DNA of 64,000 bases. Source: Gammaproteobacteria bacterium (lineage in GTDB: Bacteria; Pseudomonadota; Gammaproteobacteria; DSM-16500). The position numbers are program-made. Where the stretch lies: positions 4,518 through 68,517 of the forward strand of contig JABDEM010000003.1 of assembly GCA_013287085.1 (NCBI GenBank), read 5' to 3'. Every line of letters begins with the position of its first letter. The stretch's first letter is position 1. This document shows, one piece after another, positions 29,601-32,600 of this stretch.

Positions 29601-32600
29601 AGTTCGTTTTCTAATGGACAGAAAAACATTGAGGACACTATGAATAGAGCAGAATTGATTGACTTGATTTCTGGGCAAGCGGAAGTCACTAAGGCTATAG
29701 CGGAAAAGGTTTTAAATAGTATTTTGGAATCTATCGCATTATCGCTGAAGAAAGATGAGCCCGTAGTATTAGTTAATTTTGGTACCTTTGTGGTTAAACT
29801 ACGAGCTGCTCGTAGGGGTCGTAACCCACAAACAGGGGAAGAAATTAAGATTAAAGCTTCAAAAGCTGTTAGTTTCAAAGCCGGGAAAGCATTGAAAGAT
29901 GCTATCAAGGAAAAGGGAGTTGTTGAGGAATCGTAGAGTGGATCTACTAGGTCGGGTGCTTAGCTCAGCTGGGAGAGCATCGCCCTTACAAGGCGAGGGT
30001 CGTGGGTTCAAACCCCTCAGCACCCACCATTATATAAAACACATAAAGGAGTGGTAGTTCAGTTGGTTAGAATACCGGCCTGTCACGCCGGGGGTCGCGG
30101 GTTCGAGCCCCGTCCACTCCGCCAACTTTTGACTATAGAAAATATAGACTATGCTTCAAGAAATTCGCGATAAGACCCATGGCTGGATTGCAGGAATTAT
30201 TATTTCATTCCTGATCATGTCTTTTGCATTGTGGGGGATTCATAGCTATTTTGGTGGCGGTGGCAATACTGATGTCATCGCTAAAGTGAATGGCGTTGAA
30301 ATTACCAAAGAACAATTTGCAGAAGCCTATAATCATCTAAATCGTCAGCAATATAATGCCAATCCTGAATTGGAAGCCAATTTAAAGAAACAAGCTTTAA
30401 CGTCGTTAATCAATGTTCAAGTGATGCGACAAGCTTCATTAGATCAACACTATCTGGTCTCTTCAGAGCAGATTGGAAGTTATTTAGAAAACATTCCTGA
30501 TTTCCAAATCAATGGACAGTTTTCTAATACACGTTTTCAGCAAGTGTTAGCTAACAATAGACTTTCAGTCCCCGGTTTTCTAGATTTAGTTCAAACGAGT
30601 TTATTGATTGATCAACCTAGATTAGGTCTTATTTTTACTTCGTTTTCGCTACCGAGTGAGGCGACCAATACTTATTCTTTAGTCGAGCAAAAACGTGATT
30701 TTGACTACACTGTATTAGCTTTTGATAGTTTTGCAAAACAACCTATTTCAATTTCTAAAGAAAGCATTCAATCTTATTATCAAACCCATCAAGAAGAGTT
30801 TAAAACTCCAGAACAAGTAAGTATTGAATATATAGCCTTATCCATTAACGATGTCATCGCGAAAATTTCAGCCAATGATGAAGTCTTAAAACGTTTTTAT
30901 AAAGAAAATTCTGCTTCCTATAATTCACCTATGCAATGGAAATTAGAAGCTGTTGCCATGCCTAAAGGCATGGGAGAAAAATTTCTAAATCATTGGATCA
31001 CTTTGACGCAAGTTCCTGAAGAGTGGCAAGAGGCTGTTTTAAAGTTAAAAAAACCCGGACAAGTTTCTGAGATGATTAAAACCCATCAAGGCAATGTCAT
31101 CCTAAAACTCGCTGCTTTCCAAGATGCTGCTCAGCAATCTTATGAGGCTGTTAAAACTAAAGTGAAAGAAACTTATGTGCGCCAACAAGCCGAAGAACAA
31201 TTTGCCAACTTAAAAGAAAAATTAGCTAACGCGACTTATGAACATCCTGAAAGTTTAGAGCCTGCTGCAAAAGCTTTAGGCTTTAGCATTAAAAAAACTG
31301 AATTATTCTCAAGAGAAAAAGGCGGCTCTGACAATATCAGCAGCAACCCAAAAATCAGAGAAGTCGCTTTCAGTAGCGAAGTACTTGATAAGCAAAATAA
31401 TAGCGATGTAGTGCCAGTATCTCAAGATACACTGGCAGTGATCCGTATTAGCAAACATTTACCCGCTGCTGTATTGCCCTTAAACGAAGTTCAAAACAAG
31501 ATAGAAGCAGTACTACGCAAACAAGAGATAGAAAAGAAAGCTTATGCTGCAGCAGAACTCATCAAAACCGAATTACAAAAAGGCGAGTCTATTACTAAAT
31601 TATCCGAACAAAATCATTTGATCTGGAATTCTATAGGCCTAACAGGCAGACATGCCAACAAAGTCGATTCTTCTATTTTAAATGAAGTGTTCCAAATGCC
31701 TAAACCTGAAACTGGAACTGGAACCTCTTCATTTGATATCGCAAAAACACCCCAAGGTTACGCTATTATTGGATTAAAGTCCGTGCAAGATGGAAAATTA
31801 ATGGATAATGCGCCAAACCAACAATACAAAGTCTATTCTGAGCAAATCCAGAATACGCAAGGCTTGTTGGAATATGAGCTATTCAAACAATCCCAGCTAC
31901 AACAAGCTAAGATTGTTATCGAAAGTTAATTTTTTATCCTAGAAAATTCTCACTTTTTCCACATAAATTCCCATTTCTGTCAGCCCCGCATAAACGCCGC
32001 TCTGCTTACCTCACATAAACCCCAATCCTGTCATACCTCGCACTAATCCCCCCCAGCCCTGTCACCCCGCACTTGTTGCGGGGTCCGGTGTATAAAAAAA
32101 CAAAGGAGAAATATGAAAGAATTCACTTATTACGTTTATATCTTAACAAAAGAAAGAATCAGCATATTTTATGTGGGCGTTACCAACAATCTAATTAGAA
32201 GAGTATACGAGGACCCCGCAACAAGTGCGGGGTGACAAAGTCAAGTGTAGGGTGACAAAGGCCAGTGCGGGGTGCCAAAGACTCAATTAAACAATAATCG
32301 CGCCAGCTGATTTTGATAAAGAATTTTTATCTTCATTAGCAATATCATGCTTAGTAAAATTGCGGCCGCCATAAATCATAGTAGAAGAGGGGCTATTGGT
32401 TGCTAAAACCATGTGTTTTTTCTGTAAGTGATTAGCAATTTTTGAACTTAGATTATTGTTAGCGATGGATTCTGCGTGACTCATTTGGCTCATTAATAAA
32501 GCAGCAGTTAAGATTAAATGCTTTCTCATTCTTCTTCTCCTGGTGTTATTGACTGACTAGATAAAACACATTATACCAAATTTTTTTTGTACAAAGTAGC

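Follow-up and report, generated by a model that had tools for sequence, protein, structure and literature searches.

What is a truncated GIY-YIG nuclease gene doing between two inverted copies of a hairpin repeat, and does the enzyme belong with the repeat? The question is raised by an intergenic locus in a 64,000-nt stretch of DNA (the window; all coordinates below are positions within it unless a genome is named) from a draft gammaproteobacterial genome of the DSM-16500 lineage (GCA_013287085.1, contig JABDEM010000003.1), an assembly of 1.55 Mb in 59 contigs with 38% GC and an estimated completeness of 76%. An earlier note on this DNA had suggested that a GIY-YIG enzyme is, or was, linked to the spread of the palindrome family or, alternatively, that such genes are a target of the palindrome and are cut short by it. 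We find that the link between nuclease and palindrome is right but was already published in 2025, for the Ssn nucleases and their Ssn-related motifs (SRMs), so that the locus is not a new system. Because both arms fit the published SRM pattern, the stump is homologous to small GIY-YIG nucleases, and the arrangement of gene and hairpins is shared with intact loci elsewhere, the locus is very probably a decayed Ssn/SRM cassette.

A nuclease gene stump between oriented hairpins

The Ssn proteins are single-domain GIY-YIG proteins of about 94 amino acids (CDD cd10448), of which SsnA of Neisseria meningitidis is a characterised member (Chenal et al., Nat Commun 2025, PMC11893778). According to that report, which tested four enzymes, Ssn recognises oriented hairpin repeats when the DNA is single-stranded and not otherwise, and its cut falls a few nucleotides upstream; cutting needs the flank on the GTCA side, and binding needs the C just after the palindrome. 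The Neisseria repeat is known as NTS (CGTCATTCCCGCGMAVGCGGGAATCYRG) and its general form as the SRM, and 71% of ssn loci have SRMs and 42% of ssn loci have them on both sides of the gene (PMC11893778). We took the SRM pattern, HGTCWY N(0-2) YYVSBRH N(0-5) WNVSBRG N(0-2) RNCYNB, from the same paper.

Both arms of the window locus fit this pattern. The left SRM (32060-32088, plus strand) consists of TGTCA, the hairpin CCCCGCA-CTTGT-TGCGGGG and TCCGG; the right SRM (32209-32237, minus strand), read on its own strand, consists of TGTCA, the hairpin and TCC, with only the first 3 nt of the inner flank kept. The two are convergent, with GTCA outermost. The inverted repeat that they form is perfect and its arms are 124 nt apart, as had been noted before, but by sequence comparison it extends over 27 nt (32060-32086 and 32211-32237) rather than 26. 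Each arm is itself a hairpin, as also noted, with ACCCCGCA-CTTGT-TGCGGGGT present in both, and as single-stranded DNA the region folds much more strongly than shuffled sequences (z = -6.8). The window contains the 19-nt hairpin core three times, and none of 100 shuffles has it at all, and the SRM pattern has eight matches in the whole genome versus about two in first-order Markov simulations. The window hairpin appears to be an SRM that varies in sequence, with its GTCA and TCC(GG) flanks preserved.

Next to the left arm lies an A-rich leader (32089-32112, plus strand), and its first 20 nt or so are similar to what is found at the inner ends of hairpin pairs without a gene in this genome. The leader holds a ribosome-binding site (AGGAG, 32104-32108), and an ATG at 32113 opens a frame of 40 codons (32113-32235) that crosses the right arm and ends at a TGA; here the first reading of the sequence, with a gene start between the arms and a frame running through the right one, stands unchanged. 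Codons 1-33 (32113-32211, plus strand) form a putative ssn pseudogene. They match the GIY-YIG family PF01541 over its positions 2-28, with an E value of 2e-4 and a score of 22.0 bits (cut-off 22.6), and are 76% identical to an intact homologue of 104 amino acids in a genome of another genus (G010; metagenome-assembled genome JBDTIZ01, contig 258), which scores 57.3 bits across the full PF01541 domain. The rest of the open reading frame (ORF), DPATSAG and the stop (32212-32235, plus strand), is a non-homologous tail read from the right hairpin.

When the stump is compared with nine intact homologues, the alignment is collinear through E33 (...LIRRVYE) and homology ends there. The stump retains the tyrosines of GIY and YIG and a conserved Arg; because the HK and YYE that should follow and the conserved REK Glu are missing, it cannot be an active nuclease. 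Compared with an intact single domain of about 90-105 amino acids with its catalytic Glu, the window gene has homology only to residue 33, and we read it as a pseudogene, a non-working member of the Ssn family.

The same alignment locates the damage. Codon 33 (GAG, 32209-32211, plus strand) lies directly on the inner edge of the right SRM, where it abuts GACCCCGC with the junction GAG/GACCCC. In other copies the inner edge of the right hairpin is CCGGACCCC or CCAGACCCC, and the breakpoint therefore falls within one or two bases of 32210. Missing at this point are about 190-240 bp, corresponding to codons 34 to the end and a short 3' spacer. No C-terminal ssn fragment was found in the assembly by tblastn with the stump, with full-length homologues or with their C-terminal part, and none lies downstream of the stump. 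As judged from these comparisons, the gene lost its 3' two-thirds by an internal deletion and was not broken by a palindrome inserted into it. We infer that the deletion removed codons 34 to the end together with the 3' spacer and so brought codon 33 up against the right hairpin at its inner edge, and an active nuclease would no longer be made from the locus. The suggestion that the palindrome targets and truncates genes is not supported: the arms are at the positions of the gene's normal flanks, and palindrome insertion as the cause of truncation was rejected for this reason and for want of a 3' remnant anywhere in the assembly.

A Pfam family search and tblastn revealed no second small GIY-YIG gene in the assembly either, the matches being the stump and UvrC only. 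A search of 40 related genomes with the stump found intact genes of 95-104 amino acids, and a separate scan covered 80 diverse homologue loci from many phyla. Nearly all of the intact genes from the related genomes are bracketed by GC-rich hairpins with GTCA on the outer side, and beyond many of these lie half-site arrays of the kind described below. Hairpin-bracketed intact homologues within the same bacterial family include our loci L007, L015, L018, L035/36 and L138. L007 is flanked by TGTCATCCCCGCGAAGGCGGGGA ... TCCCCGCCTGCGCGGGGATGACA, and the flank GTCATTCCCGCGAAGGCGGGAATC of L015 fits the Neisseria NTS consensus except at the first and last positions.

The usual layout in related genera is a hairpin, about 40-50 nt, the gene and a second hairpin. 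In the scan of diverse loci, 21 of 80 have a strict SRM within 400 bp, compared with 1 in a reversed-sequence control; strict SRMs on both sides are present at 7 of the 80, and six of these seven have a plus-strand SRM upstream and a minus-strand SRM downstream. At two-sided loci the plus SRM stands about 38-50 nt before the ATG (in most of the loci listed) and the minus SRM 9-25 nt after the stop. The left SRM of the window starts 53 nt before the ATG and is therefore near the place that it takes up in the majority of listed loci with an intact gene. The earlier proposal of a GIY-YIG enzyme as the partner of this palindrome family is thus upheld, by homologues flanked in the same geometry, by the SRM fit of both arms and by the pairing published for Ssn (PMC11893778).

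The closest intact homologue, with the 76% identity given above, resides in a genome, G010, that also contains about 230 exact copies of the window hairpin. Its cognate clade (proteins with at least 66% identity to that of G010) includes G010, G041 and G090, all of which have the exact hairpin; a further five genomes have a gene of the clade but lack the exact 24-mer TGTCACCCCGCACTTGTTGCGGGG. A long-loop hairpin with the same stem (TGTCACCCCGCA, about 60 nt, TGCGGGGYCYGG) flanks the gene in the loci read, namely G088, G090, G094 and L049, the last being linked to the partial gene of G082 by coinciding length and match span. Decayed ssn copies occur in other relatives, too: L013 has an in-frame stop and a truncation, L009 is truncated, and G044, a genome of the same family with 17 exact or near-exact hairpins, has as its sole ssn-like sequence a heavily decayed copy with four stops (G044:C47:25917-26162). 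G044 is a further case of hairpins outlasting the enzyme gene.

From these comparisons, the intact form of the cassette would be a single-domain GIY-YIG gene of about 95-105 amino acids with an SRM (GTCA, a GC-rich stem-loop and TCYRG) upstream on the top strand and another, downstream, on the bottom strand. If it acts like the Ssn enzymes already characterised, its product would bind the folded hairpin only in single-stranded DNA and would cut a few nucleotides 5' of GTCA, that is, on the outer side of the arm. The present remnant would then be a hairpin pair that has lost its enzyme, in an intergenic gap between convergent genes, and part of a low-copy family of about 10 hairpins in this genome.

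Several points weigh against this interpretation. The stump alone scores slightly under the Pfam cut-off, and its truncation is known from the assembled sequence alone; the assembly is 76% complete, so an intact copy may sit in the unassembled part. The Ssn class was assigned indirectly, via the Pfam domain, the SRM pattern and the layout; in the PDB we found no Ssn structure, and the single match there, the UPF0213 protein 1YWL, is weak (E 0.009). Action of an Ssn enzyme on the window hairpin would be argued by analogy with enzymes tested on other hairpins. Finally, the layout varies, as the cognate genes of G010 and G041 are next to a hairpin pair instead of being enclosed by one.

The hairpin family and its half-site arrays

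To place the window hairpins in the context of their genome, we counted the 19-nt core across the assembly. Within one mismatch there are 11 copies, and none in the reversed control; the element thus occurs beyond the sites of the window, although its copy number is modest in comparison with the more than 200 copies of SRM-rich genomes. Three of the loci are pairs, in which a left hairpin is followed by TCYGGTGT, an AT-rich core of 50-124 nt, ACACCGGA and a right hairpin. The window locus is one of these three and the sole one with coding sequence; the other loci are solo palindromes. One solo copy lies in the window itself at 39767-39819, where the first reading had seen the hairpin core again, and is a perfect palindrome with a 24-nt stem between convergent genes. 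All nine of the hairpin loci that we examined are intergenic, and six are between convergent genes.

The hairpin is also found in relatives. Many of the exact cores of G010 are arranged as pairs, and these enclose a conserved, oriented, AT-rich core of about 68 nt. Among 86 genomes from 21 genera of the bacterial family, 8 genomes from 5 genera have the exact 24-mer, with a patchy distribution within genera, and PpiD identity between the genera that bear it is only 35-47%. For a non-coding sequence to be identical across genera so diverged, it must be under strong constraint or have been transferred, or both. The region downstream of ppiD, the gene that precedes the window locus, contains no ssn or SRM in four hairpin-bearing relatives of other genera; gene order in that region is also different.

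Two G010 loci depart from the usual pair. At L125 (G010:C87:1130-1570) the core has a nested palindrome of about 30 nt that belongs to another GTCA family (TTGTCATCCTGAACGTAGTGAAGGGATGACA) and is absent from seven paralogous cores, and at L113 (G010:C7) a whole pair of yet another family replaces the core.

Outside the arms of the window locus are further copies of half of the hairpin. The left array (31977-32059, plus strand) consists of decayed half-sites, each of them the cut-side half of the hairpin (CTGTCA and the left stem arm) in the same direction as the left hairpin. Their starts at 31977, 32028 and 32059, their degeneracy and their irregular spacing had been described correctly, and we add a fourth, more decayed copy near 32002. 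The right array (32222-32281, minus strand) has three 20-nt units, each of which contains GTCA and a spacer in addition to the stem arm and part of the loop. The first unit belongs to the right SRM, and units 2 and 3 are each only 85% identical to it, so these copies are not the exact repeats that they had been called. The half-sites outside the arms all share the direction of the adjacent arm.

Similar arrays are found in G010, where the outer flanks of 20 hairpin pairs contain 62 extra half-sites; every one of them points in the direction of the adjacent hairpin, and 0 are opposite. Half-sites are present on 26 of 37 sides, and just one lies inside a core. The array units extend from a few nucleotides before GTCA up to the hairpin loop. 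Their spacers are locus-specific and adjacent units are often identical, features that point to local tandem duplication, and we infer that the half-sites stacked outside each arm in the window arose likewise, by local tandem duplication of the cut-side half of the hairpin. Left and right arrays of the G010 pairs L113-L132 are mutual reverse complements in some loci (e.g. L130) and not in others (L123).

The arrays are located on the Ssn cutting side of the hairpins. Cutting by Ssn was also seen with the two stem halves provided as separate pieces, and extensions of the loop are tolerated (PMC11893778); by analogy, array half-sites paired with a single 3' arm could therefore be alternative Ssn substrates. 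Half-site arrays and conserved-core hairpin pairs are not mentioned in PMC11893778, in which the words "tandem" and "NIME" have 0 occurrences.

The locus is flanked by ppiD (30151-31929, plus strand; SurA_N and rotamase domains) and, on the other side, by a small ORF and rmuC (32629-33723, minus strand), and the gap that holds the hairpin pair is one between convergent genes. An ORF of 80 amino acids (32287-32529, minus strand) adjoins the right half-site array; its N-terminus is signal-peptide-like, and it has no Pfam or NCBIfam match. Upstream, genes for tRNA-Val(TAC) and tRNA-Asp(GTC) occupy 29954-30124, between an HU-like gene and ppiD, and the ORFs listed over them are spurious.

Mobility and other explanations

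Might the cassette be, or have been, mobile? Chenal et al. remarked that the layout of ssn loci is identical to that of an insertion sequence, and they raised mobility as a hypothesis (PMC11893778). Extended in this way, the Ssn/SRM interpretation would make the window cassette a dead autonomous transposable element, with the hairpins as terminal inverted repeats, Ssn as the mobilising enzyme and the gene-less pairs as derivatives akin to miniature inverted-repeat transposable elements (MITEs). We consider this possible, though on balance doubtful. It is with the same reserve that we entertain the broader view, in which Ssn cassettes and gene-less pairs would be a truly mobile family resembling insertion sequences and MITEs, the partner enzyme would be a GIY-YIG single-strand nuclease of about 100 amino acids, and stacks of half-hairpins would be its footprints; the hairpins of the window would last have been moved by an enzyme now lost.

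One observation in favour of mobility comes from the metagenome-assembled genome JABDGK01, in which a 612-bp unit is present twice (L035:1336-1946 and L036:1335-1947), with 94% identity and unrelated flanks. The unit has terminal inverted repeats of 134 nt that contain the long-loop version of the hairpin, and its single ORF encodes an Ssn protein of 97 amino acids. Terminal inverted repeats and multiple discrete copies are therefore both represented in our data, by the 27-nt arms of the window, by the two 612-bp copies and by the G010 pairs. The abundance of exact hairpins in G010, many of them paired around a conserved and oriented core, points in the same direction, as do the patchy 24-mer among genera with such diverged PpiD, the lack of ssn and SRM downstream of ppiD in four relatives that do bear the hairpin, and the G010 pair with a nested palindrome that its paralogues lack.

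Other points speak against mobility. We sought target-site duplications at the hairpin pairs and at the 612-bp unit and found none that was convincing. The relatives compared belong to other genera and thus provide no comparison of filled and empty sites between close strains. No strand-joining activity is known for a GIY-YIG domain of about 95 amino acids, and the identity across genera could come from constraint by a binding enzyme instead of transfer. In addition, the host function that Chenal et al. found for Ssn is control of transformation, not transposition (PMC11893778). A role of the enzyme in spreading the palindromes is offered in that paper as a hypothesis only; our observations on mobility, which are indirect, go beyond those of the paper and fit this hypothesis, and we would say that the sequence data lean mildly towards it.

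We turn to explanations that rival the decayed Ssn/SRM cassette. One is that the truncation is an artefact of a metagenome-style draft and that the true genome has a full-length gene between the arms. The assembly is a fragmented one, and in a related genome repeats of the window hairpin family are present at contig ends. However, the GAG/GACCCC junction has no gene-side repeat able to mislead an assembler, the 27-nt arms are inverted and not direct, and ssn decay is also seen in L013, L009 and G044. We regard an artefact as very unlikely.

Still less credible is the proposal that the hairpins are ordinary repetitive extragenic palindromes (REPs), moved by the REP-associated tyrosine transposase (RAYT, a Y1 transposase) of the window, with the GIY-YIG stump among them by chance. 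A RAYT-like ORF does exist in the window (55111-55629; 172 amino acids with the HUH motif HFHG, 75.5 bits to NF047646 against a cut-off of 80, and a match to PF01797), and REP-like elements are common in convergent intergenic gaps of the kind in which six of the nine hairpin loci lie. On either side of the RAYT gene stands a copy of a REP that goes with it (GGGCAGCCACGAGGGCTGCCC; region 55034-55656), the two copies being inverted relative to each other. This repeat is unrelated to the GTCA hairpins: it has four copies in the genome, none of them near a GTCA hairpin, and the GTCA hairpins co-occur with GIY-YIG genes in many genomes and phyla. The parallel with REP and RAYT that the earlier note had drawn therefore holds for the layout and goes no further, and RAYT is ruled out as the partner enzyme by the sequence of its REP. 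A second inverted REP pair of the GGGCAGCCACGAGGGCTGCCC family, this one gene-less, is found on contig C13 near 29895-29955.

The least likely explanation, a chance deletion scar beside unrelated terminator hairpins, would suit a gap between convergent genes, where terminators are expected, but the locus has no T-run and no terminator-like call, the hairpin core appears 0 times in shuffles, and the recurrence of the same gene-hairpin geometry across genera contradicts it. A GIY-YIG homing endonuclease of the I-TevI type was rejected as well: the intact relatives are single-domain proteins of about 100 amino acids, the NCBIfam group I intron endonuclease model gives 17.3 bits against a cut-off of 56, and there is no Rfam intron. 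No known RNA family was found at the locus in Rfam, where two miRNA-precursor matches, far under threshold, reflect the long hairpin only.

Comparison with known systems

In our literature search, Chenal et al. was the only report found to link GIY-YIG enzymes to REP-like repeats or transposition. With the Ssn system and its NTS and SRM repeats, the window locus shares a small single-domain GIY-YIG gene between oriented GC-rich hairpins that have GTCA on their 5' side and TCYRG on their 3' side; in both, the hairpins are multi-copy and intergenic, and homologues are distributed across many phyla. It differs in that its gene is a 33-codon stump from which no enzyme would be made, in that its stem-loop sequence differs from the Neisseria NTS and has a low copy number in this genome, and in the half-site arrays and conserved-core pairs.

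The REP system, with its RAYT, its bacterial interspersed mosaic elements (BIMEs) and its REPINs, is comparable at the level of organisation: a nuclease gene lies between inverted hairpins, gene-less doublets are intergenic, and the hairpin is recognised in single-stranded DNA. The window enzyme differs in being of the GIY-YIG and not the HUH/Y1 type and in having no known covalent tyrosine chemistry, and the RAYT of the window has its separate REP family.

The neisserial dRS3 and NIME mosaic elements are short hairpin repeats around 50-150-bp segments in intergenic clusters. The resemblance to the window locus lies in short hairpin repeats that bracket short intergenic segments; the differences are the lineage, the hairpin sequence and, here, a single conserved AT-rich core in place of diverse RS segments. 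Part of dRS3 is the NTS that SsnA recognises (PMC11893778, introduction). Insertion sequences and MITEs, lastly, are similar in several respects: they have terminal inverted repeats and a single small ORF, are present in multiple copies with a patchy distribution, and give rise to gene-less derivatives in which the ends are retained. What sets the present family apart from them is that no target-site duplication was found and that the enzyme has no transposase fold; any mobility here is read from sequence.

By itself, the locus changes little, since the system of which it is a pseudogene had been described in 2025. It does add data points from an uncultured lineage resembling Legionellales. 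There, ssn genes appear to decay while their hairpins persist; an identical hairpin sequence is found across deeply diverged genera; and conserved-core hairpin pairs and one-sided arrays of half-sites accompany the Ssn system. The decay, the identity across genera, the pairs and the arrays all bear on the question of whether Ssn cassettes are selfish mobile DNA or domesticated tools of genome maintenance.

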